A DNA stretch of 60,247 nucleotides from an uncultured Candidatus Saccharibacteria bacterium (GCA_964625065.1 CAZUZL010000006.1:1-60247); one strand, 5' to 3'; shown: positions 12,927 through 60,247, numbered from the stretch's first letter. Numbers and translations: made by a program. Notes: a model not told the origin generated them from the letters alone.

Positions 12927-12956
12927 AAACCCCGCATTTGCGGGGCTTTTATTTTT
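12927..12956 (+). terminator. intrinsic terminator
   Basis: CCCCGC-ATTT-GCGGGG followed by a T-run. Confidence 0.65.
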
Positions 12957-13437: not shown

Positions 13438-13554
13438 ATTTAAACCAAAAAAGGTAGTCCGAAAATATAAGTATAATTATATCTAAAAACTAAAAGGTAT
13501 GACTTACTTTGACAAGATATAAAACTAATGCTAGATTGAATAAAAATATTCATT

Positions 13555-45490: not shown

Positions 45491-45529
45491 ATAAACATTA
45501 TACTACATAAAACAAACACATTGCGAATG

Positions 45530-46147
45530 CTAAATTTTATTTACTATTGTTATGTCAAAAATATTGTTCAAGCCACCATTACTGCTGTATTCGCTATAAA
45601 TATACGACACGCCAGTTTTATTATTTTTAGCATTATAGTGTGTTTCCATACCACCTGGTACACCGGGTTCGGTTTCGTAACTAGATACAGTTTTGGTAGA
45701 TTCGTCTATAGTTATAGTATTGTTAATATTTGTAAAATATTCTACATCAACTTCTTTGCCGTTATATGTATATTTAAAAACAGCATTTTCTAAAATATTA
45801 GTTTGTGTATAAGGAACTTTAGAATTACTGATAATGTTTTTAACCATAAAACCAACCATAACAATAATAGGCACACACGCCACCACAGCCCATACAATAG
45901 AGTTATATTTTCTAGATAAAATAATACCCACAACTACCAATACTGGGTACAACAACATTGAAACACCACTGACTAAGCCTGTTGCAGACTTTGTAACCCC
46001 AGGCACGGCAAAAACCATCAATGCAGAAACAAACATTACCGGGTAAACAATAATAGGTGTTGCTGAAATTATATTTAGTACTGTTATAACTGTTTTAGGC
46101 ATTGTGTAGATTAAATTAATTTTTATAATAATATAATTATACAGCAA
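45530..46147 (-). CDS. membrane protein, unknown function
   Basis: Three TM helices, then a soluble C-terminal domain of about 90 aa. The start is possibly the Met at 46102. Confidence 0.55.
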   Translation of the reverse strand: MLYNYIIIKINLIYTMPKTVITVLNIISATPIIVYPVMFVSALMVFAVPGVTKSATGLVSGVSMLLYPVLVVVGIILSRKYNSIVWAVVACVPIIVMVGFMVKNIISNSKVPYTQTNILENAVFKYTYNGKEVDVEYFTNINNTITIDESTKTVSSYETEPGVPGGMETHYNAKNNKTGVSYIYSEYSSNGGLNNIFDITIVNKI

Positions 46148-46167
46148 CTGTAAAATTATAGAAATAA

Positions 46168-47630: not shown

Positions 47631-50600
47631 TTAGTTACCACTTGCGTTCATCATTGCTTTTGTTTTTGCACCAATCAATCCATCGGCTACAAGTCCATGA
47701 GATTTTTGCCATTTTTTGATTATGGCAATTGTATTTCTACCTAAGATTCCATCAATTTTTAAATTGGTTTTTAAATTAGCATTTAGAAATCTTTGTAGTT
47801 CTTTAACGGCAATACCCCTGCTTCCATTTTTCAGAGTTGTAGTACCAAAGTTGTAATAAATTTTATTAGAAATATTGTTTACAGTCGGAACTAATGTATT
47901 TGTTTTGATAGATACAGGTATTGGGTGACCTCCGCTACTTGTAGTAGCACTAACTGGGTCTACAGCAAATGTTGCCGATATAGTATGGTCAGTCGTAACG
48001 TTTGTAAACGTGTACGGACTACTAGCAGAAACAGCTACAGAGTCTACTGTAACAGTATCAATATGGTACCCAGAAATTGGTGTGATAGTAAATACTTGGT
48101 CGCTTCCTTCGTTAACAGAAACAGCACCTGAAGGAGTAATAGACCCGTTAGACCCACTAGATGCAGTGATAGTATGAGTAGGTATAGGATTAACTGTAAA
48201 AGTGGCTTCAGAAGATGAAACAGAATTGTAATTTGAATCAGCGGCCCGGGTAGCAGTAACCCCACAAGTACCATCTGTTGTATATGAAAGTGTGGTACCA
48301 GATATTGAACAACCTGCTGTGCCTGCTGTAGTAACGGCATAAGTTACCGCACCAGTTCCACTACCACCTGTAGTCGAAAGACTTGCGAAGGCTGCAGGAG
48401 ATGTAACAGTTTGTCCTGTAAATGTTAAGGCTGATTGACTAGCTGTACTAATAGTGAAGTTTCCGGCTGAAGCACCAGTAAGTGAGTTGTAGATTACAGA
48501 ATCTGTCGGGGCAAAATCTGCAGTAATTGCATACGTGCCGACATCAGTTGGAACAGTAGCTGTAGAGTTGTACTGAATATTACTTACAGTACCCGCAACA
48601 GAACCTGAAACTGTTGCTGATTGCGGAGACGCATTGTAGGTTACAGGCGAATTAGTAACTGAAATAGTTGGGTTAGTTGCAATAGCGGATTGAATTCCTG
48701 ACGCAACCAAAGTACGCAACTGTGCATGACCAGCAACATTGGGGTGTAGCCCGTCATATGAATATGTTGGTATTGTCGTTGAATAAGTAACACCATTTGA
48801 ACCTAGATTTATTAAAAATGCATTTGCATCTGAAGACCCTGATATATATGAATTAAAACCTGATGTTATATTTGCAAGTCCACCTTGATTAAAAGGTATG
48901 AGTACAAATATTTTTGCAGATGACCCAGCGGCAGTTCTAAGTAATGTAAGCCAATTAGTTACCACAGAAGCACTACTAAGACCACCGTTTGTACCCATGT
49001 TAACTACAATATAATCTGGAACTGGAGAAAATAAACCTGAAACTAATCTACTATTCGTTGAGTAATAATAATTCCAAGCACTCGGAAACAATGGAATATC
49101 TGCATTGAATGCTGTTTCCCAAGATTGACCACCAAAAGCAATATTTCCATATTCGGCATTTAGGTCGCTTGCAAGACCATATGAATATGACGATACGGAT
49201 TCTTCGTAGTTAGAATAATTTGTTAAGTCTGTGTGGTCGCCCAGTATCCATGCGCCTTCTGTTATCGAGTCACCGAAAACGAGCAACCTCTTCGTTAGAA
49301 GTGTCGGCGCTGAAGTACTGAACCCTTCGTCTAAAACCAAACCTGTTATTTTTAGAGAAGTGTGCCCATTCCATCTAGATATATATGCATCAGATGACAG
49401 GAACCATACCACCAATGTGTGTGTTGTAAGTGATAGGTTTTGTCCTAGAGTAATTTGGGTGTCTCCAGATAAAAGCTGGTAATCCACCGTGGCACCTCCA
49501 TCAATACTATACCGTATTCGTGGCAACTGTTTAGCCACACCAGCAAGACTAGAAGTGTCCACAGCAAGTTTTACTGTAGTACCTGTAAAATTAACTTTGA
49601 AATATGCACCAGGGTTTACCGCTTGGGCATATGTACTATTACCTACAATATTGTTTGCGCCTAGCGAACCGTTACCATTAGAATACCAACCATACGGACT
49701 GAATTTCCAGTTACTGTCAGTAACTGCTGTTGTTGCATACGAATGCACAACAGTAACAGAAGTAGTAGCACTAGTCGATGGGTCAGTTATAGTCAAAGCT
49801 CCAGTTGCACTGCCGGCATTAAGAGTAATTGTTGCGTGCGTAGCATCAGTTATAGTCTGACTTGTTATAGATGCCCCTGTTCCACCTGAAAGAGTAAACG
49901 TAGGTGTGCCCGGTGTTCCTGCGGTCCATGATGTACCAGTTCCTGATAAAGTTATAACGTTACCAGTAATGTTCATATTTACAGTTGTTGGAAAAGCATT
50001 AATAGGAAAACCTTCATTGTATAGATCAGTAACATTTTGCGATGATAAACTCCAGTTAAATATACGCATGTCGTCCATAGAGCCGTCCATTTTAACAACG
50101 TTGTCAGGTCTTAAACCAATACGAATATTAGCATTAGTTCCGGTCGGTGCCCCTGAAATACTACAACTACCTGCGTCTACACCTGTAGTGGCTACACCGT
50201 TAACATAGAACGTAGGGGGCACATTCACATTTGCCCCTGCTACAACAACATAATGCGCCCATGCATTGAGGTTTACACTCGGACCATTATAATTACACAG
50301 AGTCGAATCATTCGCTCTAGTGAAAACAAGTGTTGGGGTTGCAGCATTGTTTGTTCTAAATTCAAAAGGAGTTCTAGTAGAACTGTCATTAGCATTTTTA
50401 GTTACGAATTCTCTAAACCCACCGCCGGTGTCTATTTTTGCCCATACGGCTATAGTAGTTGCGCCAAGGTAATTACTATCTGAAACAGCAGCCGTAACAT
50501 AGTCAGTAGTATTAAAATCTAATGCACCAGAAATTTGTCCGGCTACCCACTGGGAATTGTCTCCGGGGAAATTAGTTAGTGTACCATTGACCCCACCTGT

Positions 50601-51791
50601 ACTATCTACCGCTGTTAAGCCAGATGCGTCGTCAAACTTCCACCAGTTAATGGGTGTATCTACAGAACATGCACTGGTTGAAAAAGTTTGGTCTGCTGAT
50701 GTACCCGTACCCGCCAAGTTCGTTGCATACGCTTGGTAATGGTAGACCGTGCCACATATTAAACCTGTTAGACTGGCTGTATACGCACCAGTACTGTACG
50801 TACCAGAGGTTGATGTTGTTGAACCATACGATGAAGTTAGACCATAATTAAAACCGCGTACTGTGGGTGAAGCATTTCCATCTACCGTAATGTTACCGTT
50901 TAATGTTGCTGAAATACTTGTTACAGACGATGCGGCCTGTACTGTAACTGTCGGGGTAGACACTTCTACACCTGTATACAAAGTGGTTACATCAAGTGAC
51001 GACAGCGCGCGGTTATATATACGTAGTTCATCTAGCGGTCCGTTCATTTTAACAGCTCCGTCAGGTCTTCTACCGATATATATAGACGCACTGTTTCCAG
51101 TCGGTGCACCTGATGTAGCACAACTACCAGTACCAGTAGTTGCTACACCGTTTATATAAAAAGTCGGCGCAACACTTATGTCAGCACTGGCAACAACTGC
51201 ATAATGAGTTAGCGTGTTAAGTGTAACGGCTGGACCACTAAATGAACACAGTATGGTGTTGTTCGATCTAGCGAACACTAGTGTAGGCGTTGCAGCGTTG
51301 TTTGTTCTGAATTCAAAAGGCGTCCTAGTAGAGCCGTCGCCAGAACCTTTACTTACAAAATGTCTAAAACCACTACCTGTAGTAATGTTTGCCCAAACTG
51401 AAATGGTTAAAGCCCCGAGGTAGTTAGTATCTGCCACAGTTGCTGTTACAGAGTTGGTTGTAGTAGATGAAAAATTCAAGGCACCATTTAAGTGTCCGGC
51501 TACCCACTGGGAATTGTCTCCAGGGAAATTTAAAAGTGTACCATTGGCACCCCCTGCACTATCTACTGCTGTCAGACCAGTCGCGTCGTCAAATGACCAG
51601 TAGTTTAACAAATTAGTAGTTATGTCTGCGTGTACTGGTTTCGGGTTAAACAATAAACCAAGTGAAATAAAGCAAGTAAAAAGCAATACAGAAAAATACA
51701 GACCTGTTTTCTGTCTTTTTCCTCGTACCATATTTTTAGAAGTAGTTTCTACCCTACCTTTATCCATTCCGCCTATAAAATTCAATATCAT
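47631..51791 (-). CDS. 1386-aa secreted/anchored multidomain protein: 2x LamG-like, SGNH/GDSL hydrolase, Ig-like repeats, C-terminal peptidoglycan-binding domain
   Basis: The signal anchor is followed by two duplicated blocks of about 210 aa (LNYWSFDDATGLTAVDS..DELRIYNRALS and INWWKFDDASGLTAVDS..DDMRIFNWSLS). Then come LVFGDSITEG with a later DGLHPN (SGNH blocks I and V), and the tail RGIAVKELQRFLN..IDGILGRNT..WQKSHGLVADGLIG (PG_binding_1-like). Confidence 0.75.
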   Translation of the reverse strand: MILNFIGGMDKGRVETTSKNMVRGKRQKTGLYFSVLLFTCFISLGLLFNPKPVHADITTNLLNYWSFDDATGLTAVDSAGGANGTLLNFPGDNSQWVAGHLNGALNFSSTTTNSVTATVADTNYLGALTISVWANITTGSGFRHFVSKGSGDGSTRTPFEFRTNNAATPTLVFARSNNTILCSFSGPAVTLNTLTHYAVVASADISVAPTFYINGVATTGTGSCATSGAPTGNSASIYIGRRPDGAVKMNGPLDELRIYNRALSSLDVTTLYTGVEVSTPTVTVQAASSVTSISATLNGNITVDGNASPTVRGFNYGLTSSYGSTTSTSGTYSTGAYTASLTGLICGTVYHYQAYATNLAGTGTSADQTFSTSACSVDTPINWWKFDDASGLTAVDSTGGVNGTLTNFPGDNSQWVAGQISGALDFNTTDYVTAAVSDSNYLGATTIAVWAKIDTGGGFREFVTKNANDSSTRTPFEFRTNNAATPTLVFTRANDSTLCNYNGPSVNLNAWAHYVVVAGANVNVPPTFYVNGVATTGVDAGSCSISGAPTGTNANIRIGLRPDNVVKMDGSMDDMRIFNWSLSSQNVTDLYNEGFPINAFPTTVNMNITGNVITLSGTGTSWTAGTPGTPTFTLSGGTGASITSQTITDATHATITLNAGSATGALTITDPSTSATTSVTVVHSYATTAVTDSNWKFSPYGWYSNGNGSLGANNIVGNSTYAQAVNPGAYFKVNFTGTTVKLAVDTSSLAGVAKQLPRIRYSIDGGATVDYQLLSGDTQITLGQNLSLTTHTLVVWFLSSDAYISRWNGHTSLKITGLVLDEGFSTSAPTLLTKRLLVFGDSITEGAWILGDHTDLTNYSNYEESVSSYSYGLASDLNAEYGNIAFGGQSWETAFNADIPLFPSAWNYYYSTNSRLVSGLFSPVPDYIVVNMGTNGGLSSASVVTNWLTLLRTAAGSSAKIFVLIPFNQGGLANITSGFNSYISGSSDANAFLINLGSNGVTYSTTIPTYSYDGLHPNVAGHAQLRTLVASGIQSAIATNPTISVTNSPVTYNASPQSATVSGSVAGTVSNIQYNSTATVPTDVGTYAITADFAPTDSVIYNSLTGASAGNFTISTASQSALTFTGQTVTSPAAFASLSTTGGSGTGAVTYAVTTAGTAGCSISGTTLSYTTDGTCGVTATRAADSNYNSVSSSEATFTVNPIPTHTITASSGSNGSITPSGAVSVNEGSDQVFTITPISGYHIDTVTVDSVAVSASSPYTFTNVTTDHTISATFAVDPVSATTSSGGHPIPVSIKTNTLVPTVNNISNKIYYNFGTTTLKNGSRGIAVKELQRFLNANLKTNLKIDGILGRNTIAIIKKWQKSHGLVADGLIGAKTKAMMNASGN

Positions 51792-51900: not shown

Positions 51901-52359
51901 TCACCATTTTTTATATATATTGTTTTGCGTATTTATTTTAAAAGTAAATGTATTTGGGTCACTTGTAACATAGGTAATTGTATAACTACCCCAAACTACT
52001 GTGTCACCATTTTTTTGTGTGTCAGTAAAACTGATAGCACCTTCGTTATTACCTATTTTTAATGAAAAACTATACACAGTGGCACCACCACCTTTTGAAT
52101 AAGATCTAGAAACAGCACCTGTGTATGAAATTATTAAACCACTTTTTGTGGTTATAGGTGTTTTGTTTTTATTTACAATAACAGTTTCGGTTGGATAGCT
52201 TATACTACTTTGCATAGCATTATCTACCTTTGTTATTGGTGAATCTGAAACTGAGCCCTTTATATTGGGTGTATATTTTATATATGCCAACATACATATA
52301 CCAACAACGATAAATACAATTGCAACAATGTTCATATTTTTTCTCAGACTTAAATTCAT
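51901..52359 (-). CDS. hypothetical membrane-anchored protein (152 aa)
   Basis: N-terminal TM helix, then a beta-rich domain. TGA stop. Confidence 0.55.
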   Translation of the reverse strand: MNLSLRKNMNIVAIVFIVVGICMLAYIKYTPNIKGSVSDSPITKVDNAMQSSISYPTETVIVNKNKTPITTKSGLIISYTGAVSRSYSKGGGATVYSFSLKIGNNEGAISFTDTQKNGDTVVWGSYTITYVTSDPNTFTFKINTQNNIYKKW

Positions 52360-52393
52360 ATATTAATACACGTATTGTACCATATACTTTTGA

Positions 52394-52409
52394 GGAACGG
52401 CTGGATTCG
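52394..52409 (-). repeat. degenerate copy of tRNA-Ser 3' end (distal att-like site)
   Basis: GGAAC-GGCTGGATTCG compared with GGAACCGGCTGGATTCG in the tRNA gene. It coincides with the composition break. Confidence 0.5.
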
Positions 52410-52470
52410 GCTTCGAATATGATTACTATTTGCTTTACTTTAGTTTTAATGTAATATTTACATGTAATTT

Positions 52471-53214
52471 ATGGAATCACAAGAATTTAAAAATAAAATA
52501 TTTAATACGAGTTGGATTACATATTCTTGTATGGAGTTTTTCTCGTTAGAGATTACCATGTCATTATATGAAGATCTTGGGTTGTTTTTTAAGGTTAAGA
52601 ACTCATTGCATTTATTTATTAAGAATAAGCTCAATGAAGATAAAGAAATTTACGCTCTTTTATTGAATAATAGTGTTTGGGAGGAAGCAATGTTTAAAAG
52701 GATTATTGAAGAATATAGTAAAACTAACCCTGAAGATTACAATATATTAAAATCATGGATTCTTTCGCGTTTTACTCTACATTTTACAGATCAACCACAC
52801 TGGATGGCATGGCTTGATATCTGTGAATATATAACAGATAAAAAACATAAGGAAACTAAGTGGGTGGATTTTAGATTTAGAAACAAAGAATTCGTTGAGA
52901 ATTTTTTGTTGTCACAAAATACTAGTGAATTTGAAAATAAAATTGACTCACTAAATGAGGAATTGTTATCAGATTGGGATCTTAATTTATTTGCAAATTT
53001 CGAGTATGTTTCTTTGTATTCTGCAGTTTTTATGCTTCAAACCTACAGGATATTTAAATTTCAGGAATTTATTTCTAAAACAATACCAACTTTACTTATT
53101 AAAGACATAAATACATTAAATACTCATGCTGAAAATTACATAAAAGTGAATAATATGGAATTACAATTTAAACCTAACGATGTTTTAATTAAAATTAATT
53201 TCTTAAAAAATTAA
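52471..53214 (+). CDS. hypothetical protein (247 aa)
   Basis: Long ORF in very AT-rich DNA, forming a two-gene unit with 53218..53583 (3-nt spacer). No family recognised. Confidence 0.55.
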   Translation: MESQEFKNKIFNTSWITYSCMEFFSLEITMSLYEDLGLFFKVKNSLHLFIKNKLNEDKEIYALLLNNSVWEEAMFKRIIEEYSKTNPEDYNILKSWILSRFTLHFTDQPHWMAWLDICEYITDKKHKETKWVDFRFRNKEFVENFLLSQNTSEFENKIDSLNEELLSDWDLNLFANFEYVSLYSAVFMLQTYRIFKFQEFISKTIPTLLIKDINTLNTHAENYIKVNNMELQFKPNDVLIKINFLKN

Positions 53215-53217
53215 GTT

Positions 53218-53583
53218 ATGAAAATCAAAAATGATCAACTTAAGAAAATAGAACTTATTTTTGATGCTAACAGGGCTAAGGAATTATTGCTAAATTTAGA
53301 TCAGAAGGTATTCAAGTGTACAATACCTAAGGAGAAATTAATTACCTTAGTTGATATGGTATTGAGCGATGAAAGGCTTAATAAAGAATCAAATAATATA
53401 CTTGTTAGGTATATTGATCTTTCTGTTAAATGTTCGCTATATATAAAGAAAGATAATTATTTTTTATGGAATATAGTTAAAAAGATACTCGAAATTAAAA
53501 ATGATGAAATTAATATGGAGATGAAATTGACTTTTTTAGAAAAACAAGTTTTACCACGTTTTAAAGCGAAATTACTTAAATAA
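53218..53583 (+). CDS. hypothetical protein (121 aa)
   Basis: Tightly coupled to the upstream ORF. No family recognised. Confidence 0.5.
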   Translation: MKIKNDQLKKIELIFDANRAKELLLNLDQKVFKCTIPKEKLITLVDMVLSDERLNKESNNILVRYIDLSVKCSLYIKKDNYFLWNIVKKILEIKNDEINMEMKLTFLEKQVLPRFKAKLLK

Positions 53584-53603
53584 AAAATATACTGTTTTTT
53601 AAA

Positions 53604-54170
53604 TCACTGAGAATATTTAAACCAATAACGATCAATTGCAATCTTTGGTTCACTTTCATCATAATATTCAGGGTATACTTCTGATAAATACTGTAAGAAA
53701 TTTAAAATACATTTCCCCTGCTGTTGAGTAAATCCATTCATCCTTTTTATAAAAGAATCTGCAATTTTTGTGCTATTTTTCAGCTCAGTTAAAATAAATT
53801 CATCCTTTCCTTCGTGTATATTACTATTCTTTGAAATATAATCTATCAAACACTTTTGGTCAGCTTCAAGTGGTAAAGTAAGCTGATTAACAACACTACT
53901 TGCAACAATATCGGATTCATATAAATTATTTATTAGAAGTAACATATATGTCGGCAAATAATACCTGAAAGCATCATCTGTCAAAAATCCGAGTGCACTA
54001 TTATGAAAAATAATATCAGGATTTAATACTTGATCCCATTTTTTTGAAATAAAAATATCTTTTATTTCTATAGCTTCGCCAGAATTACTACTTACAATAT
54101 TGTTTGCATTCGGCATATTTGAAATACTAAATGCACTAAAAATCATTTTTATGAGTAAATCTTTTGTCAT
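53604..54170 (-). CDS. hypothetical cytoplasmic protein, immunity-protein-like
   Basis: 188 aa with no TM or signal sequence. The motif LTDDAFRYYLPTYML reminds me of small orphan proteins seen in immunity-gene neighbourhoods. This is memory-based and unverified. Confidence 0.5.
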   Translation of the reverse strand: MTKDLLIKMIFSAFSISNMPNANNIVSSNSGEAIEIKDIFISKKWDQVLNPDIIFHNSALGFLTDDAFRYYLPTYMLLLINNLYESDIVASSVVNQLTLPLEADQKCLIDYISKNSNIHEGKDEFILTELKNSTKIADSFIKRMNGFTQQQGKCILNFLQYLSEVYPEYYDESEPKIAIDRYWFKYSQ

Positions 54171-54258
54171 ATTATTTTATTATTGAGATATAATACACAT
54201 TAAAATATTTAAAAACACACTAATATTATAACATATACACCATGGCATGAGTATTCCA

Positions 54259-54362
54259 TAAATAGATATTTGTGACCATTCAGTGTATATACCTAGTTTC
54301 AATTTTCAGATGATATGATAACACCTGAAACACAGTCCCGACCTCCTTTTCCTCGGTAGTGC
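54259..54362. repeat. copy A of a roughly 105-nt dispersed repeat upstream of a minus-strand gene
   Basis: AAATAGATATTTGTGACC.TT..GTGTATATACCTA.TTT.AATTTT ... TGAAACACAG.CCC.A.CT..CTTTTCCTCGGTA is shared with 55768-55880. Confidence 0.7.
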
Positions 54363-54473
54363 AAACTTATGAAATATATTAATATATATTCATTAAATGC
54401 ATCAGTCTAAAAGGTTTTATAATGTAAATATGTTAAAAATACCTATACCAAAATCAAAACATGAACAAGTACT

Positions 54474-54515
54474 TATAAAAACAGGACTCAATATATAAAT
54501 ATAATTGAATCCTGT
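54474..54515 (-). terminator. intrinsic terminator after 54540..54770
   Basis: ACAGGATTCAA/TTGAGTCCTGT stem (one mismatch) plus a T-run on the minus strand. Confidence 0.5.
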
Positions 54516-54539
54516 GTAAACATAGTTATAGAATTTTTA

Positions 54540-54770
54540 TTATTTACTATCTCTAGAAAGGATAGCTGAAATAATAGATAGAAGAAAGCAAGCAATAGAA
54601 TATGCACCAAATAATGCGAATTCATCTTGCCACTCAACAGCATTTATAGCTCTAGATTCTGCTGAAATACTACACCAGATACCCAAACTAATTTTCAAAA
54701 AAAAGTAAAACACGATTGAGCCACAAATTAAACAAATTAAAGAAAACCAAATAAGAAATAACTTTGCCAT
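54540..54770 (-). CDS. small two-TM membrane protein (76 aa)
   Basis: Two hydrophobic helices, 8 nt downstream of 54778..54993. Confidence 0.5.
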   Translation of the reverse strand: MAKLFLIWFSLICLICGSIVFYFFLKISLGIWCSISAESRAINAVEWQDEFALFGAYSIACFLLSIISAILSRDSK

Positions 54771-54777
54771 GATACTT

Positions 54778-54993
54778 TTAGTTAAAGGTTTTAGCTGAAT
54801 GTTTGAATACTAAGTCTAGACAATCTCGATCAACTTCTCGAGATAGCCTGATCATCTTCCTCTGCTTTTTTAATATAGCTTCTCTTTTTTTATTGCTAGA
54901 TATGTCATTAAAACCTTTTACTTCTTTTATGTTCTCTACAGTAAAAGTACAATTTCCGTCACTTACATGTGATTTGAGATTTCCGATTTTCAT
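54778..54993 (-). CDS. small conserved hypothetical protein (71 aa), paralog of 14667..14864
   Basis: See 14667..14864. About 40 percent identity by eye, with the strongest match in the C-terminal KKQRKMIRLSREVDRDCLDLVF. Confidence 0.55.
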   Translation of the reverse strand: MKIGNLKSHVSDGNCTFTVENIKEVKGFNDISSNKKREAILKKQRKMIRLSREVDRDCLDLVFKHSAKTFN

Positions 54994-55114
54994 ATCAAAT
55001 AGTATTAAATTGTTGTAGATACAGTATTACTACTGCTATGAATTATTTTTATATATTATACATTAAATTTTATTTTTAGCAAACTGCCTTAATTGACCCA
55101 TTATAAAACCGAGG

Positions 55115-55145
55115 CAAGATAAAACCCCTCCTAAAACAGGAGGGG
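55115..55145 (-). terminator. intrinsic terminator after 55185..55733
   Basis: CCCCTCC-TGTTTTA-GGAGGGG followed by TTTTAT on the minus strand. Confidence 0.6.
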
Positions 55146-55184
55146 TTAAGTCTATTAACTTCAAATTAGATTTTAGAATTGAAG

Positions 55185-55733
55185 TTATTTCTGAATATTT
55201 AGTAATTCTGTTTTTACATCTTCAGGTAGTAAGTCTAAAATTTTCGGGTTAGGAGTATTTTCATCTTTTGCACCTCTTTTTGTAAAATTTTCTATGAATC
55301 TTATAAATTCTTCGTCTTTTATAATATTCTCTCTGGTTTTTTGATCTGCATGTCCAAGTCTAGATAGAACGGCAGATAAAGTTAATGGTTCACTTTGTGT
55401 TTTCCCCAGAACATAATCTTTTGAATATTTTATAAATTCTTCGTCTTTTATAATATTTTCCCTAATTTTTTGATTCACTTGTCCTAGTCTAAATTGAACA
55501 GCTGACAAAGTTATTGGTTCACTTTGTGTTTTCCCTAACACATAATCTAACGAATATTTTATAAACTCATTATTTTCAAGAATATCTAATTGTTCTTCTT
55601 CAGACAAATTTTTTAGCCTTGCATTTATAGCTGAATAAGTAATATATCCCTCCTTCTTTCCAAGAATATAGTCGACTTTATTTTGATTATTCTCAATATT
55701 GTTACCTTTATTAAATATATTATTTTCATTCAT
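55185..55733 (-). CDS. hypothetical protein built from three 43-aa tandem repeats
   Basis: The repeat is DY(I/V)LGK...(I/L)T.SA...RLG.....R.NIIKDEEFI(K/R)(Y/F), three times. A TATAAT lies only about 8 nt upstream of the ATG. Confidence 0.6.
   Translation of the reverse strand: MNENNIFNKGNNIENNQNKVDYILGKKEGYITYSAINARLKNLSEEEQLDILENNEFIKYSLDYVLGKTQSEPITLSAVQFRLGQVNQKIRENIIKDEEFIKYSKDYVLGKTQSEPLTLSAVLSRLGHADQKTRENIIKDEEFIRFIENFTKRGAKDENTPNPKILDLLPEDVKTELLNIQK
55301..55687. repeat. 3 x 129-nt tandem repeat (coding)
   Basis: Units start at 55301, 55430 and 55559. The first two are about 80 percent identical at the nucleotide level. Confidence 0.8.
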
Positions 55734-55767
55734 ATTGACTATTATAACATACCTAGATTTTATTTAA

Positions 55768-55880
55768 AATAGATATTTGTGACCTTTCTGTGTATATACC
55801 TACTTTTAATTTTGTAGCTGGTATGGTACCATATGAAACACAGCCCCAATCTACTTTTCCTACTTTTCCTCGGTATTGGG
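55768..55880. repeat. copy B of the roughly 105-nt dispersed repeat
   Basis: Aligns with 54259-54362 and carries an 11-nt internal duplication (CTACTTTTCCTACTTTTCC). Confidence 0.7.
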
Positions 55881-55898
55881 ATCCTGTAAACTCGATTA

Positions 55899-55927
55899 AG
55901 TGCAAGTTCCCGCTTGCACTTTTTTTA
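55899..55927. terminator. hairpin at the 3' end of 55931..56674; the T-run is on the plus strand
   Basis: AGTGCAAG-TTCCCG-CTTGCACT followed by T7 on the plus strand, with an A-run on the other side. Confidence 0.45.
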
Positions 55928-55930
55928 TTG

Positions 55931-56674
55931 TTATTTTATAAGTGCGAAATCTACAAGATCTTTTGGGTAAAATGGCATTTCCCGAAAAAGACTGTTTTCA
56001 ATTTTGAATAAATAACTTATTGCTGCAGCTTCAAAACACCAATATCCAAAATATCCACCTCCATCTGGCCCCTTGTGGTTATCATACCAATAGCACTCCT
56101 CCATATTTTTATACCAATTCGTCAAGAAATCTTTTACGTTCATTTGGGCCTCATCAGGATTTAGTAATGTGGCTTCAAGCAAGAAGCTAAATTTACTTTC
56201 ATAACATAAGGTTTTATTGCTAACAACAATTATATTATTAAAATATTTCGCAACAATCGTGTCATATAAGGCATCAACTCCTTCGTTCTTTATGCATTTT
56301 AATAATCGATTAAAAATATCTACTTCTACTTTTAATAAAACTCCTAGGGAAATCAGCCACAGTGCTCTCTCATAATCATCAAATGAATCTGCAAAATAAA
56401 AACCATCACTATTAGGTTGCTTTTGATATTCCTCTAAACTTATTACTATTTTATTAAAATCAACATTAAGAATTGATAGATCGTATCCAGCAGAGTATTT
56501 TGCAATTAATATTTCAATATTGTTTACGAATATAAAATGGTATAACAACTCTATTCTTGAGTATTGTTCTGGTATATTTTTTATATCATTACTAAAATTA
56601 GAATTTTCAATTTCAATGAAATTTATTCTTTCATTAAAGTAGTTCAAATCCATTAATTTATCTCTTGTATTCAT
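55931..56674 (-). CDS. DUF1911/PoNi-like immunity-type protein (tentative)
   Basis: C-terminal NWYKNMEECYWYDNHKGPDGGGYFGYWCFEAAAISYL resembles the WY..H....Y.GYW.FEAAA signature I associate with PoNe-immunity (DUF1911) proteins. Unverified. Confidence 0.45.
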   Translation of the reverse strand: MNTRDKLMDLNYFNERINFIEIENSNFSNDIKNIPEQYSRIELLYHFIFVNNIEILIAKYSAGYDLSILNVDFNKIVISLEEYQKQPNSDGFYFADSFDDYERALWLISLGVLLKVEVDIFNRLLKCIKNEGVDALYDTIVAKYFNNIIVVSNKTLCYESKFSFLLEATLLNPDEAQMNVKDFLTNWYKNMEECYWYDNHKGPDGGGYFGYWCFEAAAISYLFKIENSLFREMPFYPKDLVDFALIK

Positions 56675-56700
56675 TGTGTTATTCCTTATATTATAACATA

Positions 56701-56728
56701 GGTATGCAATAGAAAGGATGTTACGCGA
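56701..56728. repeat. promoter-proximal motif, copy 1 (most diverged)
   Basis: GGTATGCAATAGAAAGGATGTTACGCGA lies 6 nt from an extended -10 (TGTTATAAT on the minus strand, TATAAT hexamer at 56690-56695) of gene 55931..56674. Confidence 0.55.
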
Positions 56729-56751
56729 TTGCTTAAAATTTTACGTTTCCA

Positions 56752-56781
56752 ATAAAAAACCCGCTGGAATGGACCAGCGGG
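56752..56781 (-). terminator. intrinsic terminator
   Basis: CCCGCTGG/CCAGCGGG stem followed by T6 on the minus strand. Confidence 0.65.
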
Positions 56782-57015
56782 TCGAAAAGTTACGAGATTT
56801 TTTGTCATGTTAACCAGTAGGAGGAACAGACTTAGCCGGTATGAATCCTTCAGACGAGTTATTTAAAAGCAAAAGTACAAATTTACAATAATTTGACAAA
56901 ATAGATTTCTGACGCTTTTTCAAGTCCATTCTATCAAAGTAGTTGACTGATTGTCAATGTTTTATCTTCTTAAAATCAATACTTTAAAAAACAGGATATG
57001 AAGATTATTTTAGTT

Positions 57016-57048
57016 ACACAAGCATGCTACAAAGAGGATGTTGTGCGA
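57016..57048. repeat. promoter-proximal motif, copy 2
   Basis: ACACAAGCATGCTACAAAGAGGATGTTGTGCGA matches copy 3 at 30 of 33 positions. Confidence 0.7.
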
Positions 57049-57069
57049 CGCTTTTTAGGTATTACTTTA

Positions 57070-57405
57070 CTATGTAATAGACTTTAGTTCATCACATATT
57101 TCGAATATGTTTTTCCAGTTTGGGGAATTTCGGAATGCAACCAAAGTCCACTCGTTTGTGTTTTGTAAATCAATTATTTTATTTCTCAATAGGCTACTCA
57201 TTGCCATCTTTTTATTAGATATAAGGCCGGCATTTAATAGTTTAGTTAAGCTGTTAGAATGTAAAAATGTCACAACTTCTATACCAAACTCTTCAAATAT
57301 TTCATATTCTATTGTTTCATCATCTGCCTCTAATAAATACCTCCCACATCTATTTAAAGTGTTTAAATAAAGTTCGTATAATTCCGATATAGATATTTCG
57401 TTCAT
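57070..57405 (-). CDS. hypothetical cytoplasmic protein (111 aa), immunity-protein-like size and context
   Basis: Clean ORF flanked by motif copies 2 and 3. A TATAAT at 57424-57429 (minus strand) precedes it. No family recognised. Confidence 0.55.
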   Translation of the reverse strand: MNEISISELYELYLNTLNRCGRYLLEADDETIEYEIFEEFGIEVVTFLHSNSLTKLLNAGLISNKKMAMSSLLRNKIIDLQNTNEWTLVAFRNSPNWKNIFEICDELKSIT

Positions 57406-57437
57406 GTTATTAATTATTTTTTTATTATATTAGTACT

Positions 57438-57470
57438 ACACAAGCATGTTGTAAAGAGGATGTTGTGCGA
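57438..57470. repeat. promoter-proximal motif, copy 3
   Basis: ACACAAGCATGTTGTAAAGAGGATGTTGTGCGA lies 8 nt from the -10 of gene 57070..57405. Confidence 0.7.
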
Positions 57471-57490
57471 TAATTTTTTGGAGACTTTCT

Positions 57491-57523
57491 CAAAAAAACC
57501 CAGCCGACATAGTGTCAACCGGG
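57491..57523 (-). terminator. intrinsic terminator
   Basis: CCCGGTTGAC-ACTAT-GTCGGCTGGG (with G:U pairs) followed by T7 on the minus strand. Confidence 0.6.
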
Positions 57524-57721
57524 TTCTAAGGTATTATATTACCCTAAGTAACAAATTTCAGAAGAAAGGTAAGTCGTGCGTGGGGGGATGAGCCAATCTT
57601 CTATTACAAAATAAGAACTGAGTTAATATTAGCAAGGTACTCGATAAATAGCAAATTACGGGTATGACTTAGAGAGGCTGGCTATTCTAAATCTTTAAAT
57701 TTTTATTTAATATGCATAATT

Positions 57722-57754
57722 ACGTAAGTGTACCGTAAAGAGGGTTTTGTACGA
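57722..57754. repeat. promoter-proximal motif, copy 4 (diverged)
   Basis: ACGTAAGTGTACCGTAAAGAGGGTTTTGTACGA shares the central GTAAAGAGG and the terminal TTGT.CGA. Confidence 0.5.
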
Positions 57755-57768
57755 TAAATTAAGTTCAA

Positions 57769-57797
57769 TTGACATTATTTCATTTACCTATTATAGT
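57769..57797 (+). promoter_or_regulatory. sigma70-like promoter for 57828..58013
   Basis: TTGACA - 17 nt - TATAGT. Confidence 0.5.
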
Positions 57798-57827
57798 AAA
57801 ATTAACTCATAAATAGTTATTTTTAAT

Positions 57828-58013
57828 ATGTTAACATCTAAATTTATTGAACGATTGATAATTACTTCGTTCATTTTTCTTGAACTTTGTTTTATTGCTG
57901 CCGTATTTCCACAATTAAATAAATTCCGTATTGAAATATTTATCAGTGGGATTATTTCATTTCTAATCATAGTTATTTCATGGAATTATGCCCTCTATAA
58001 AGAGTACACATAA
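57828..58013 (+). CDS. small two-TM membrane protein (61 aa)
   Basis: Hydrophobic ORF between a consensus promoter and a terminator. Confidence 0.5.
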   Translation: MLTSKFIERLIITSFIFLELCFIAAVFPQLNKFRIEIFISGIISFLIIVISWNYALYKEYT

Positions 58014-58047
58014 TTTATATGAAATTAAACAACAAAAAATCAACTAG

Positions 58048-58076
58048 GGTCCAGTAATATTTGCTGGACCTTTTTA
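58048..58076 (+). terminator. intrinsic terminator
   Basis: GGTCCAG/CTGGACC stem plus T5. Confidence 0.6.
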
Positions 58077-58115
58077 AAATTACTGTGTTATGATAGGTTA
58101 AATATCTTTATAATT

Positions 58116-58460
58116 ATGAATACAATTATTTACAGCAAACGGTCAAATACTTATATTTACGCTCTTTTTATCAACATCCTGTATATAGTTGACAAGGCTA
58201 AAAATAAGAGAAACAGAAAATGTTCATATTTACCTAACAAAACCATTGTGTCATCTGAAGAACTAAGGTCGTATATTGACCTTAAGTTTAAGTCCATAGA
58301 AAAGAGAATGGACAATTTAGAGAAAAACATTAATGATTTTAAAGGTAGGCAGGAAAATTTAACTAAAAAACTTGATGCGATGACAAGAGATATCAAGCAA
58401 ATAAAAAATCAAATTACAGAATTGAATGAATTATTAGTTAATGATTCTGTCAGAGATTGA
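58116..58460 (+). CDS. hypothetical coiled-coil protein
   Basis: The C-terminal 70 aa are heptad-rich (IEKRMDNLEKNINDFKGRQENLTKKLDAMTRDIKQIKNQITELNELL). The true start is uncertain. Confidence 0.45.
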   Translation: MNTIIYSKRSNTYIYALFINILYIVDKAKNKRNRKCSYLPNKTIVSSEELRSYIDLKFKSIEKRMDNLEKNINDFKGRQENLTKKLDAMTRDIKQIKNQITELNELLVNDSVRD

Positions 58461-58475
58461 ACTCAAGTTTTTGTA

Positions 58476-58516
58476 AACCTAGAATATTGAAATGGTATTC
58501 TAGGTTTTATTTTTTA
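58476..58516 (+). terminator. intrinsic terminator
   Basis: AACCTAGAATA/TATTCTAGGTT stem plus T-run. Confidence 0.6.
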
Positions 58517-58591
58517 TAAGAAACATATTTGACATAAATTCGCAATCCCTTTATAGTATATTAGAACAACCTAACAAATCTTTAAATTAAT

Positions 58592-58786
58592 ATGATACAA
58601 GAAATTAGTAAATCAGACCGGCACAAAGAAAGAATTAAAGATAGAGATGGAATAAGTTCAATAAAACCAGAACATGATAATATCATTCTGGAGGTTAATA
58701 AAGAACTGGAAGAATTCCGCAGAGAATATAGAATTAAGAACAGAAAATCACAAATTTCTGCTGCTAATATCATTCTTACTGCTTAA
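58592..58786 (+). CDS. small charged hypothetical protein (64 aa)
   Basis: ORF followed by a terminator. No family recognised. Confidence 0.4.
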   Translation: MIQEISKSDRHKERIKDRDGISSIKPEHDNIILEVNKELEEFRREYRIKNRKSQISAANIILTA

Positions 58787-58796
58787 TTGTGCTTAA

Positions 58797-58835
58797 AAGC
58801 CCGTAATTATTTAAATTAATGGGCTTTTTAATTTT
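58797..58835 (+). terminator. intrinsic terminator
   Basis: AAGCCC...GGGCTT stem plus T-run. Confidence 0.55.
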
Positions 58836-58907
58836 GATTCTCAATCTTGTAAATATACTACCCTATTAAATAAAAAAGGGGGGTTACTCCCACCTTGTTT
58901 TATTTAT

Positions 58908-58926
58908 GCGGAACCGGCTGGATTCG
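58908..58926 (-). repeat. exact 19-nt copy of the tRNA-Ser 3' end (att-like)
   Basis: GCGGAACCGGCTGGATTCG is identical to 59127-59145. Confidence 0.85.
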
Positions 58927-59083
58927 CCCGCGCCTCTCGCCTCGTCGGACCACTCGACTCGGACTGGGCACCGCCTCACGATTTTTCTTGCTAGAAAAAT
59001 ATCGTTCCGGCGTTCGAAACCAGCACACAAGCCAACCCAGTAGGTCATTTTGAGAAATGAGCAGTTTACTTGTTCGGTTCCGC
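58908..59083 (-). ncRNA. GC-rich tRNA-like element / decayed tRNA-Ser copy with an insertion in the T-loop
   Basis: On the minus strand a 9-bp terminal helix forms (GCGGAACCG ... CGGTTCCGC). The T-stem halves GCTGG and CCAGC are separated by about 85 nt of hairpins that are flanked by CGAA duplications. The 5' half has the length of a class II tRNA, but no cloverleaf is recognisable. Confidence 0.35.
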
Positions 59084-59127
59084 GAACAAAAATGACCCGA
59101 CCAAAGTCGAGCTCGTTTTTGTAATCG

Positions 59128-59214
59128 CGGAACCGGCTGGATTCGAACCAGCGAGGGTTTTAACACCCTACATCTTTAGCAAAGATGGACCTTCAACCAC
59201 TCAGACACGGTTCC
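59128..59214 (-). tRNA. tRNA-Ser (GCT), class II
   Basis: It folds as GGAACCG-TG-..-CATCT-TTGCTAA-AGATG-long variable arm (GGGT-GTTAAA-ACCC)-GCTGG-TTCGAAT-CCAGC-CGGTTCC-G. A short hairpin plus T-run follows at about 59093-59120. Confidence 0.85.
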
Positions 59215-59226
59215 AAAAAGACTAAT

Positions 59227-59859
59227 TTACTTTAGCATACTTTTGTATTTTTTCCAGTCATTTATTTTTTGTAGATGTTTGTCGTTATTTGTGCCTATTT
59301 CTTGGATATATTTTAGAACATGTTCACTATTCTCAATTCGTACATCTTTTTTATCTTTTGTTATTCTTGCCTTATAACCAAATTCATTCAACGTATTTAA
59401 AACCGAAGAAATAAGAGGTTTAGATGCACTAGTGAAAGCAATTTTTAAGTATTTGTATTTCTTACCATTAGAAAAATATGTATTTGTATAAAAACACCCG
59501 TCTGTATCTATAAGACCACGCAGACATTCTTTAGAAAATTCTTTGTTTTCTTTTATCCAAATTGGTACATCTATTTGTTGCTTTACTTTATTACCTAAAA
59601 CTAAACCAATACTTTGGCAAAAATCAACAAGTTGCTTTCTTTGAACAACAATATCTATTGCGTTAGCATATTTTAATTTATGAATTTTTGGGTCAATTCT
59701 GAATAAGTGCTTAATTAATTTAACTATGTAATTTTTATATTTTACTTCTTTGTTTGAAAGAGTAATGTGTATGTGGTAAGGTGCCACACCACCGTCACCC
59801 AACATAATGCCTGTAAAGGAAGCTAGAAAATTATCTTTTTTAGGGATTCTTATTGGCAT
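59227..59859 (-). CDS. LAGLIDADG-family homing endonuclease domain protein
   Basis: Two LAGLIDADG-type motifs are present, FTGIMLGDGG and LRGLIDTDGCFY. The ORF is in frame with the upstream HTH ORF, across a single TGA. Confidence 0.75.
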   Translation of the reverse strand: MPIRIPKKDNFLASFTGIMLGDGGVAPYHIHITLSNKEVKYKNYIVKLIKHLFRIDPKIHKLKYANAIDIVVQRKQLVDFCQSIGLVLGNKVKQQIDVPIWIKENKEFSKECLRGLIDTDGCFYTNTYFSNGKKYKYLKIAFTSASKPLISSVLNTLNEFGYKARITKDKKDVRIENSEHVLKYIQEIGTNNDKHLQKINDWKKYKSMLK

Positions 59860-59907
59860 TAAAGACTGAAACCCGCGTGGATTTTTCTTGTATTTACCTG
59901 TTTGTTC

Positions 59908-60207
59908 TCACCATTCTTTCCATTTAGTTTTTCTATATTCTTCGTTTAATGCGACTTTGCCGTAAATTTTGATTCTATTTTTACCGCCCTTTCTGCCACT
60001 TTTTCTTAAACGTTCTTTTGTGTCTGTAATTGTATATGATGCAGGTATTGGTATTTTTGCTATTTTAGATATTTGTTTTACTGTGTTGTATGGTATTGTA
60101 AATTTTTCTCTTTTCCAATCAGAAACAGTTCTTGTGCTTATGCCAAGTTTTTCAGATAACTGGATGTTGTTTAAACCAGAATGTTCAATTACTTTTTCAA
60201 TAAACAT
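59908..60207 (-). CDS. helix-turn-helix DNA-binding protein, possibly the N-terminal part of the LAGLIDADG protein
   Basis: The motif LNNIQLSEKLGISTRTVSDWKREK is HTH-like. It ends at a TGA that is in frame with 59227..59859, 16 sense codons upstream of that ORF's Met. Confidence 0.6.
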   Translation of the reverse strand: MFIEKVIEHSGLNNIQLSEKLGISTRTVSDWKREKFTIPYNTVKQISKIAKIPIPASYTITDTKERLRKSGRKGGKNRIKIYGKVALNEEYRKTKWKEW

Positions 60208-60247
60208 TTTCTGAACGCCTTTTTTATCAAATTTTACCCTTTTATAT

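Follow-up and report, generated by a model that had tools for sequence, protein, structure and literature searches.

Two probably unrelated layers downstream of a tRNA-Ser gene

In a Candidatus Nomurabacteria-like (Patescibacteria) genome, the tRNA-Ser(GCU) gene is followed by two unrelated layers of DNA: an AT-rich accessory islet of 6.5 kb with ~11 small genes on both strands (52410..58865), and a GC-rich palindromic insert of 200 nt (58927..59126, minus strand), which is the one unexplained element. Taken as a whole, we lean towards an account in which an ordinary decayed tRNA-Ser(GCU) island later received the palindromic insert. The window, that is, the whole stretch analysed, is one metagenomic contig of 60,247 nt that constitutes the entire record and stops 1 kb past the tRNA. 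The tRNA (59128..59214, minus strand; Rfam tRNA score of 45.4 bits) is intact and of class II with a long variable arm; ARAGORN placed its ends at 59127-59214 (minus strand), versus 59128-59214 with Infernal. Directly upstream of its promoter lies an HTH and LAGLIDADG homing-endonuclease reading frame (59227..60207, minus strand; Pfam), the translation of which contains one in-frame TGA.

Copies of the tRNA 3′ end

The 19-mer repeat GCGGAACCGGCTGGATTCG has just two exact occurrences in the window, both on the minus strand: at the tRNA itself (59127..59145; copy 1, attL-like) and as a displaced tRNA 3′ fragment (58908..58926; copy 2). It comprises 18 nt of the tRNA, from T-loop C56 to the discriminator, and one flanking base. 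A reading made from the sequence alone had noticed this recurrence correctly but assigned 19 nt to the tRNA. There is no third site in the window at up to 3 mismatches, where the chance expectation is none, and an exact 19-nt repeat arose in 0 of 100 shuffles. The same reading had named repeats at many sites as a finding that would count against an island; the window shows no such scatter of the 19-mer.

A decayed third fragment, GAGGAACGGCTGGATTCG (52392..52409, minus strand; copy 3), differs from the 19-mer by one deletion and one substitution. It had been placed at 52394-52409 with a deletion only; the copy is real, but the substitution had been missed. We assessed its chance occurrence by 17-mer matches with ≤1 error in block-shuffled windows; ~0.003 are expected per window, and 0.3% of the shuffled windows contained one. 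Copy 3 has the orientation and strand of tRNA-Ser(GCU) and lies 32 nt upstream of the ATG of gene 51901-52359, and copies 2 and 3 are both downstream of the tRNA 3′ end on the tRNA strand. The orientation and side of these tDNA fragments, exact or decayed, are those of an island and argue for one. All sense fragments, in the window and in the compared sequences L051 and L069, share the C56 start. Integrase crossovers in tRNA genes are classed by sublocation (anticodon loop, T loop and T/acceptor junction), and tyrosine integrases canonically use the T loop as one such sublocation, giving a T-loop/J class of att sites (PMC4383910). The C56-to-3′-end fragments fit this class.

After copy 2 comes what resembles a native tRNA trailer, GCATAAATAAAACAAGG (58866..58907, minus strand), which reads GCATAAA, a small hairpin and a T-run. 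Its GCATAAATAA also follows the intact tRNA in a close relative (L021), and L068 and L011 have a similar trailer and terminator. The trailer is not obviously island DNA, which weakens the island reading.

Comparison with a near-identical relative

Both layers are absent from L021, a Ca. Nomurabacteria MAG (Kiruna_bin-09228) with a tRNA 100% identical to that of the window and a neighbouring FAD-oxidoreductase gene that is 98% identical. In the alignment, L021 also lacks the LAGLIDADG gene and has a second tRNA (anticodon ACU) in that place. In place of the insert, exactly the tRNA plus GCATAAATAA remains, as expected if a 219-bp unit with the 19-nt repeat at its bounds is present in one genome and missing from the other. 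In place of the 6.5-kb islet, the tRNA lies 49 nt upstream of the homologue of gene 51901..52359. This ORF (minus strand; GC 0.30) flanks the islet in the window and encodes a membrane-anchored protein of 152 aa, the C-terminal domain of which is 31% identical to the product of the 327-aa gene abutting the tRNA in L021. Relative to this flanking gene, copy 3 occupies the position of the intact tRNA in L021. Both this position and the islandless allele, next to the same tRNA sequence and an FAD gene with 98% identity, favour the island reading.

The empty site that had been predicted, with the tRNA next to the 51901..52359 homologue and no island, does exist in L021, but the breakpoint is not at the repeat. 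The difference between the two genomes spans from the inside of a 1386-aa gene (~47757), of which L021 has just a ~125-nt 3′ remnant, to the tRNA, and the far breakpoint of the islet does not coincide with copy 3. Homology restarts exactly at the tRNA and stops ~3 nt beyond its 5′ end. Because the difference starts inside the 1386-aa gene and the flanking genes are 31% identical, homologous recombination of a larger block explains the absence in L021 equally well. Strains may have exchanged a flexible block between the end of the FAD/PG-binding gene and the tRNA through homologous recombination in conserved flanks, with the tRNA-end copies being palindrome or template-switch by-products near the tRNA terminator and not att scars. 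We consider this possible but doubtful. Both breakpoints point to a swap, as does the 31% identity of the 152-aa and 327-aa genes versus 98% for the FAD genes, whereas a T-loop crossover predicts the C56 start that three genomes share.

Composition and gene content of the islet

The GC content of the islet (52410-58865) is 0.279 versus 0.374 for positions 1-47565, within which the lowest 6.5-kb window has 0.348. That the islet falls below every such window favours the island reading. The GC3 of the islet genes (0.16-0.30) overlaps that of the host genes (0.18-0.35), a host-like value that weakens the island reading and is consistent with a block swap. The AT-rich stretch that had been described is therefore real, but it does not begin at copy 3: GC starts to fall at ~51.6-51.8 kb, where the 1386-aa gene ends, ~600 nt ahead of copy 3. 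Past the tRNA (59215-60247), GC is likewise low, at 0.289. The islet had also been described as tiny units with their own promoters and terminators. Terminator-like hairpins are enriched (10 found versus 2.1 expected), and promoter-like hexamers are not (53 versus 47.5).

Two islet genes have Pfam matches: a PoNi_N and PoNi_C immunity protein gene (55931-56674, minus strand; E = 1.6e-19 and 5.3e-25) and a DUF6714 gene (53604-54170, minus strand; E = 1.2e-14). The remaining ORF calls are at 52471-53214, 53218-53583, 58116-58460 and 58592-58786 (64 aa) on the plus strand and at 54540-54770, 54778-54993, 55185-55733 (with a 129-nt internal tandem repeat) and 57070-57405 (111 aa) on the minus strand. 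These other islet genes had no family match in Pfam, NCBIfam, PHROGs or PADLOC (Pfam alone for the 64-aa ORF), PHROGs giving weak coiled-coil noise only; the 111-aa protein and a 247-aa protein are near-ORFans, and structure prediction had no informative outcome. PoNi is a documented immunity family (PoNe/PoNi; PMC6688995). We found no literature on DUF6714, an uncharacterised family, and no toxin domain in the ORFs scanned. The cargo likely gives protection from the polymorphic nuclease toxins of neighbours, together with surface or accessory functions; that only one islet gene belongs to a firm immunity family and two others are near-ORFans weakens the immunity part.

The profile scans bore out the earlier claim that the island has no recombinase, transposase or phage gene. 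None was detected in ten island-region ORFs with Pfam, NCBIfam, PHROGs and PADLOC; the eleventh ORF (64 aa, 58592-58786) had no recombinase match in Pfam, the one database used for it. The other scanned ORFs of the window also had no integrase, and both the 19-mer and the insert motif were absent from 2.9 million viral contigs (IMG/VR). These absences weaken the island reading. We rejected a prophage or phage satellite, given that these scans gave no phage structural, replication or packaging gene and that the 19-mer and the insert motif had no match among the viral contigs.

The islet contains internal repeats. A ~125-nt module lies upstream of the DUF6714 gene (54260..54382, minus strand) and of gene 55185-55733 (55767-55899); its copies are 73-91% identical, with no convincing shared fold. 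A 45-nt promoter-containing module with -10 boxes is present in three copies (56695-56739, 57015-57059 and 57437-57481, minus strand; 60-84% identity) that bracket the 111-aa gene and precede the PoNi gene. These are two plus three copies of promoter-like modules and not one per cassette. An integron or cassette array, which would have an IntI integrase and an attC site at each cassette boundary, was rejected because the scanned ORFs include no integrase and the internal repeats do not follow this pattern.

The palindromic insert and its relatives

The insert has a GC content of 51.5%, a fold z of -3.2 and a detected inverted repeat, and is laid out as sense, antisense and sense copies of the tRNA end. 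From the tRNA outward it contains a terminator-like hairpin (59095-59112), the 3′ strand of the tRNA acceptor copied in antisense (59075-59084), a window-specific hairpin insertion (~59025-59074), an antisense T arm (59012-59024; match p = 0.018), an AT hairpin with an AGCA loop (58980-59003) and, on the plus strand, CACCGCCTC (58969-58977), which is complementary to the 3′ terminus of the neighbouring tRNA(ACU) type. It had no Rfam match at E ≤ 1 and no blastn match among phages or plasmids. Group I introns have a conserved catalytic core, their exon ending in U and the intron in G. A group I intron, like any other Rfam RNA, was rejected because there is no Rfam match, the upstream tRNA is already complete, and the base before the distal repeat is G in the window and C in both L051 and L069. 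The stretch that separates copies 1 and 2 is likewise not left over from an island that carried genes; it is a tRNA-end palindrome, and relatives have homologues.

A homologue occurs in L051 (639-842; 61/66 then 40/59 positions identical), where the islet is absent, and an analogue in L071 follows tRNA-Ser(CGA) (14702-14860), with an uninterrupted helix of ~33 bp plus 12 bp that is all Watson-Crick on inspection. The insert in L069, a looser analogue, also has an exact 19-nt repeat, and L011 has a minimal 7-nt form. The antisense blocks match each cognate Ser tRNA, in separate lineages.

These elements bear on the block swap. Inverted local copies of the tRNA end centred on a terminator hairpin, which in L071 form the long helix, suggest templated copying at the DNA level, and the minimal form in L011 also fits a swap. 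Although template switching accounts for the antisense blocks, it does not account for 19 nt being repeated directly and exactly at a distance of 200 nt, and it leaves unexplained a third, decayed copy in the same orientation 6.5 kb away.

The elements after the Patescibacteria Ser tRNAs (window, L051 and L071, more loosely L069) might instead form an undescribed class, either mini mobile elements or folded sites of recombination, which mimic or copy the target from T loop to 3′ end, and at which recombinase-less cassettes accrete; we hold this to be unlikely. More doubtful still is an active cassette system, independent of a recombinase or served by one in trans, in which the palindromes would be attC-like folded sites or miniature mobile elements that target Ser-tRNA T loops and nucleate the accretion of promoter-bearing cassettes. 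The recurrence of sense-antisense-sense elements with cognate antisense blocks, the exact repeat in L069 and the short self-contained units of the islet, some between 45-nt direct repeats, are consistent with it. However, neither an integron-type nor any other recombinase is encoded by the scanned ORFs of the window, the internal repeats resemble promoters and lie beside a few genes rather than every cassette, L051 has the element without any islet, and the element was not found in scans of JGI metagenomes or viral contigs.

Chance repeats or an assembly artefact, such as a chimera joined at the tRNA or a fold-back from MDA, are hardly credible. Amplification can produce palindromic structures, and the locus lies on a single contig that ends just beyond the tRNA. 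Against this stand the shuffling results for the exact and decayed copies, the independent assembly of parts of the islet in Logan contigs L001 and L070 from two runs, the diverged homologue of the insert in another genome and an analogue in three independent assemblies.

Known systems and proposed history

In Islander-type islands, an intact tDNA and a displaced tDNA fragment mark the ends, and a tyrosine integrase is present. The locus resembles them in its intact tRNA with same-orientation 3′ fragments downstream that run from T loop to 3′ end, in their tandem arrangement, in its atypical GC and in being missing from a close relative; the fragments are cognate and have the canonical C56 start. 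It differs in that the islet is small (6.5 kb) with no integrase or mobility module, the distal fragment is decayed, and the far breakpoint against L021 is off the fragment.

CIMEs of streptococci are decayed or cis-mobilisable integrative elements. As in CIMEs and the degenerate tycheposon remnants of Prochlorococcus islands (10.1101/2020.12.28.424599), att-type repeats flank DNA without integration and transfer genes, newer insertions would have moved older ones away from the tRNA, and small niche or defence cargo genes reside in a streamlined genome; unlike these, the host is a CPR bacterium, with no intact partner element or integrase seen in the lineage. When tycheposons integrate in series, older elements are moved outward, and partial tRNAs and degenerate remnants stay behind (10.1101/2020.12.28.424599, preprint). 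Integrase-less islands bounded by tDNA fragments, such as decayed islands, CIMEs and tycheposon remnants, are a known end state, and the proposal of a new kind of integrase-free island was unwarranted. The stand-alone PoNi_N and PoNi_C gene, with no adjacent toxin and surrounded by unrelated small genes in a variable region, recalls orphan-immunity or polyimmunity loci (T6SS and T7SS arrays; PoNe/PoNi, PMC6688995), but there is one firm immunity family among ORFans and no secretion-system context known for the organism.

For the insert, we compared two further systems, templated duplications at quasipalindromes or fold-backs and the folded attC-type sites of integrons. Like them, the insert is an inverted copy of adjacent sequence around a hairpin, with perfectly complementary arms in L071; the palindrome is long and imperfect, and its single-stranded DNA could fold. 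Unlike them, it also ends in a direct tRNA-end copy (in L051, that of the neighbouring tRNA), its hairpin insertions sit exactly at the acceptor/T-stem junction, and no IntI-type integrase is present.

We return to the decayed island with a later insert. The repeats, the absence of both layers from L021, the gene content and the lack of a recombinase are observations, and from them we infer the integrase mechanism, the succession of events and a role in immunity. Its first layer (52410-58865) would be an old integrase-less islet of foreign or paralogous small genes, most likely carried in by one or more tyrosine-integrase elements that crossed over at the tRNA T loop or T/acceptor junction. 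Each integration would regenerate the tRNA and shift the earlier 3′ end outward, making copy 3 the oldest displaced end, now decayed and still beside the gene that it first neighboured. The genes for the integrase and for mobility may since have been lost, or may never have been on the piece (CIME-like and trans-mobilised). The leftover cargo, the PoNi-type immunity gene, the DUF6714 gene and lineage-specific ORFans, was probably enlarged by local duplication of promoter-plus-gene modules. The second layer (58927-59126) would be a later 219-bp event at the same tRNA position, in which an element was inserted, or made in situ, from sense and antisense T-loop-to-3′-end copies, displacing the then-current 3′ end and trailer to give copy 2 and 58866-58907. 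The serial integration into a tRNA gene that had been proposed is thus partly supported, by the tDNA fragments, the empty site and the C56 starts, and needs correction as to the insert, the trailer, the breakpoint and the composition.

The locus indicates that very small CPR genomes, too, keep a tRNA-anchored flexible locus. Near-identical strains differ by >10 kb at tRNA-Ser(GCU), and one of them has an orphan toxin-immunity gene. This bears on how epibionts survive interbacterial warfare and on how CPR epibionts with few recognisable mobile elements acquire genes. The palindromic element derived from the tRNA end offers a well-defined and inexpensive target for follow-up.

Copies of the tRNA-Ser(GCU) 3' end

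We located a class-II tRNA-Ser(GCU) gene on the minus strand at 59127-59214 according to ARAGORN and at 59128-59214 according to Infernal. The 19-mer GCGGAACCGGCTGGATTCG (plus strand) spans C56 of its T loop to the discriminator base plus one flanking base, and the tRNA-end fragment reads CGAATCCAGCCGGTTCCGC. Two exact matches of the 19-mer occur in the window, at 59127-59145 (copy 1) and 58908-58926 (copy 2); no other match with ≤3 mismatches was found window-wide, and 100 shuffles gave none. The exact recurrence noted in the sequence-only reading is thus real, and the 19-mer is not scattered over unrelated sites of the window. That reading also described a third copy with a single-base deletion. 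The copy is present at 52392-52409 (GAGGAACGGCTGGATTCG), but it carries one substitution as well as the deletion; matches of this quality were obtained in 0.3% of block-shuffled windows. Copies 1, 2 and 3 are on the strand of the tRNA and lie downstream of its 3' end. A 200-nt insert (58927-59126) separates copies 1 and 2 and, with one 19-nt repeat, makes a 219-bp unit; between copies 2 and 3 lies an AT-rich islet of 6.5 kb (52410-58865).

A genome-collection scan with the 18-mer CGAATCCAGCCGGTTCCG placed 3 of 57 loci in the CPR. This 18-mer was found once each in about 54 genomes of unrelated phyla (L002-L058), where about 17 chance matches are expected by a hand estimate; the matches in unrelated phyla are presumably tRNAs with an identical T arm and acceptor.

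Comparison with related genomes

The nearest relative, the Ca. Nomurabacteria MAG Kiruna_bin-09228 (locus L021), has an identical tRNA-Ser(GCU), a FAD-dependent oxidoreductase 98% identical to that at 46168-47565, and the gene order of the window between 43.6 and 47.6 kb. It has neither the islet nor the 200-nt insert, and the homing-endonuclease gene is absent too. The C-terminal 90 residues of a 327-aa gene in L021 are 31% identical to the product of 51901-52359, and the tRNA lies 49 nt beyond that gene. Copy 3 is 32 nt upstream of the ATG of 51901-52359, the spot that holds the intact tRNA in L021. In L021 the octamer GCATAAATAA comes immediately after the tRNA, just as it comes after copy 2 in the window, and a similar trailer and terminator are found 3' of the tRNA at loci L068 and L011. 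Copy 2 together with 58866-58907 therefore resembles a former tRNA end and native trailer that the 219-bp unit has displaced.

The empty site predicted by the sequence-only reading was only partly recovered. L021 lacks the islet and has the tRNA beside a homologue of 51901-52359, but that flank is just 31% identical and the far breakpoint is inside the gene for a 1386-aa protein, not at copy 3. Of this gene (47631-51791, minus strand) L021 retains the last ~125 nt, so the gene is also strain-variable. The differing alleles measure 11.4 kb in the window and 1.0 kb in L021. On the 5' side of the tRNA, homology stops about 3 nt past the tRNA end; the window continues with an HTH-LAGLIDADG frame and L021 with a second, divergently oriented class-II tRNA. 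The internal breakpoint and the divergent flanking genes favor the main rival to tRNA-directed integration: replacement of the whole block from strain to strain by homologous recombination in conserved flanks, with the tRNA-end copies arising locally. We consider this rival possible but rather unlikely.

Relatives whose FAD-dependent oxidoreductase gene is 70-87% identical are not syntenic at this locus. The window is the entire contig, which ends at 60247, and exact-protein look-ups for a contig extension or alternative junctions returned only short Logan contigs or no record.

The 1386-aa protein is a surface protein with two Laminin_G_3 domains, CE2_N, a GDSL lipase domain, an MBG domain and a C-terminal PG_binding_1; the GC of its gene (0.41) is higher than the contig mean. 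Directly upstream of the tRNA-Ser promoter, 59227-60207 (minus strand) is a free-standing, AT-rich gene, missing from L021, that combines Xre-type HTH and LAGLIDADG_3 homing-endonuclease domains in one frame with a single in-frame TGA (KWKEW*EQTGK). In every relative examined, tRNA-Ser(GCU) is head-to-head with a second 88-nt class-II tRNA 80-130 nt away (L011 1548-1635, L021 6066-6153, L051 341-428; also L067 and L068); the window contig stops short of the expected site. ARAGORN assigned this tRNA the anticodon ACU (L011, L021 and L051), and the loop was read directly as UUACUAA in L021 and L051. An A34 serine tRNA for AGU would be unusual in bacteria.

Composition and gene content of the islet

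The GC content of 52410-58865 is 27.9%, compared with 37.4% for the rest of the contig, where the lowest 6.5-kb window has 34.8%. The islet is thus more AT-rich, as had been noted, but the composition does not switch at copy 3: the fall starts at ~51.7 kb, at the end of the 1386-aa gene, and includes gene 51901-52359. The kilobase past the tRNA is as AT-rich as the islet. Further AT-rich patches (GC 0.30-0.33) occur at 12955-14244 and 44000-46150, so low GC by itself is not distinctive of the islet. The GC3 values of island genes overlap those of host genes, and much of the GC deviation therefore comes from amino-acid composition and intergenic DNA. Host-like GC3 is also a point in favor of block replacement.

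About eleven ORFs, 64-247 aa long, are spread over the two strands of the islet. The sequence-only reading had seen no recombinase, transposase or phage gene among them, and profile searches agreed: ten island-region ORFs gave no match to a recombinase, transposase, phage family or defense system in Pfam, NCBIfam, PHROGs and PADLOC, and the 64-aa ORF at 58592-58786 gave no recombinase, transposase or phage match in Pfam. The most interpretable cargo is an orphan immunity gene at 55931-56674, which encodes a full-length PoNi_N plus PoNi_C protein (E = 1.6e-19 and 5.3e-25); PoNe DNase toxins have PoNi proteins as their immunity partners (PMC6688995). A DUF6714 gene lies at 53604-54170, and we found no literature on this domain. 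Searched against libraries of 5.8 and 1.8 billion sequences, the 111-aa and 247-aa proteins proved to be near-ORFans. PDB sequence searches came back empty, two AlphaFold single-sequence models had pLDDT 66 and 40, and a Foldseek search yielded no match at E < 1. Within gene 55185-55733, positions 55298-55555 hold a 129-nt (43-aa) tandem duplication (83% identity), whose repeated peptide includes FIKYSxDYVLGKTQSEPxTLSAV.

A non-coding module of ~125 nt is duplicated upstream of two genes (54260-54382 and 55767-55899); we rejected a riboswitch since the copies share no convincing fold. A 45-nt module with a -10 element is present in three copies (56695-56739, 57015-57059 and 57437-57481), which bracket the 111-aa gene and also lie upstream of the PoNi gene. 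The proposal that the islet consists of small transcription units with their own signals held for terminator-like hairpins, which are enriched, but not for promoter-like hexamers, which are not. Two gene-poor stretches, 56755-56957 and 57495-57700 (both minus strand), have ORFs of only 39-40 aa. Terminators and a strong promoter-like site (TTGACA-18-TAGAAT with TG) lie within them, and small RNAs or micro-proteins are conceivable products.

A probable decayed array at a tRNA integration hotspot

The interval as a whole is most simply explained as a tandem array that formed at a tRNA hotspot of integration and has since decayed, an account we consider somewhat likelier than not. Copy 3 would be the oldest displaced tRNA end, the islet would be cargo without an integrase, and the 219-bp unit would be the latest event. 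The pattern matches Islander-type islands, in which a regenerated tDNA is combined with a displaced fragment and the crossover falls in the anticodon loop, T loop or T/acceptor junction (PMC4383910). In Prochlorococcus tycheposons, successive integrations push older elements into the island and leave partial tRNAs and degenerate remnants (10.1101/2020.12.28.424599). Serial site-specific integration, as first proposed, is consistent with the displaced tRNA-end copies and with L021 lacking the islet, but the ORFs scanned include no integrase and the far breakpoint is away from copy 3. Since an integrase is defining for Islander-type islands, the interval cannot be counted among the active ones; it agrees with the end state known for tRNA islands, or with a CIME-like piece. 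The suggestion of an island of a new kind was not borne out, as tycheposon remnants illustrate the same end state; the accessory islet, anchored at a tRNA and free of an integrase, adds a CPR example to a known kind of object.

A sense-antisense-sense element

The 200-nt insert has a GC content of 51.5% in a 37% genome and folds better than shuffled sequences (z = -3.2). In tRNA strand order, it consists of a terminator-like hairpin at 59095-59112, an antisense copy of the tRNA acceptor 3' strand (GCGGAACCG), a hairpin insertion, an antisense T arm (GCTGGTTTCGAAC; p = 0.018 in the window and 0.006 in L051), ~85 nt of other sequence and a sense fragment of the tRNA end. The homologous element at L051, a genome with an 87% identical FAD-dependent oxidoreductase gene, also follows tRNA-Ser(GCU). 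It matches the window element at 61/66 and then 40/59 positions, followed by an unalignable distal 41 nt. It ends in the last 20 nt of the neighboring tRNA(ACU) rather than in the Ser(GCU) end, and this tRNA(ACU) end is paired with GAGGTGGTGA inside the element (z = -7.2).

A covariance model built on the conserved stretch of the element retrieved an analogue after tRNA-Ser(CGA) in three assemblies (L071 14702-14860; also L072 and L073), a nearly perfect long palindrome. Its antisense blocks GCGGAAGCG and GAGAGATTTGAA are complements of the acceptor strand and T arm of its own tRNA. The L071 palindrome starts in the T loop of the tRNA, continues through the trailer to the loop of the terminator and then returns (MFE -112.7 kcal/mol, z = -9.7). 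Its helix of ~33 bp plus 12 bp comprises the antisense blocks, trailer and terminator, with a GC hairpin at the acceptor/T-stem junction as its sole interruption, and on direct reading has only Watson-Crick pairs. These apparently mismatch-free arms argue for templated copying at the DNA level over selection on an RNA helix. The palindromic nature of the insert family also favors block replacement with locally arising copies. In the minimal form, at L011, the terminator stem reaches 7 nt into the acceptor strand. At L069, which has another tRNA-Ser(GCU) variant, the insert is GC-rich and 155 nt long and comes with an exact 19-nt repeat starting at C56; we found no clear antisense block in this insert. 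That the sense fragments always start at C56 argues for a crossover in the T loop.

We weighed several other identities for the insert. A group I or other intron in the T loop was rejected because the tRNA upstream is already complete, L051 and L069 do not obey the U...G splice rule, and no Rfam match was obtained. The window element and its analogues matched no Rfam family, which also removes tmRNA, 6S, SRP and other known sRNAs. The 9-bp closing stem predicted in the window insert is not conserved in L051. Degenerate sense tRNA pseudogenes were dismissed as sense similarity to the 5' two-thirds of the tRNA does not exceed shuffle level (p = 0.27-0.92); only the antisense T arm and acceptor blocks do. 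A guide-RNA-like element (omega-RNA or bridge-RNA scaffold with a 19-nt guide) is no more than a remote idea; the ORFs scanned include no TnpB, IscB, IS110 or Cas gene. A phage or plasmid origin was set aside after viral, PHROGs and phage/plasmid searches: the element matched no phage or plasmid record, the 19-mer and the 21-mer motif shared by the window and L051 were absent from the viral contigs searched, and the 21-mer, the most conserved part of the insert, was absent from JGI metagenome contigs.

The elements may be att relics that include an inverted site, palindromes extended by template switching, or small mobile elements. The sense-antisense-sense tRNA-end element is the one feature that we could not assign to a known family. 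It is a small, rare element, perhaps a by-product of mutation, and its interest would be considerable if it turned out to be a mobile element or a site of recombination.
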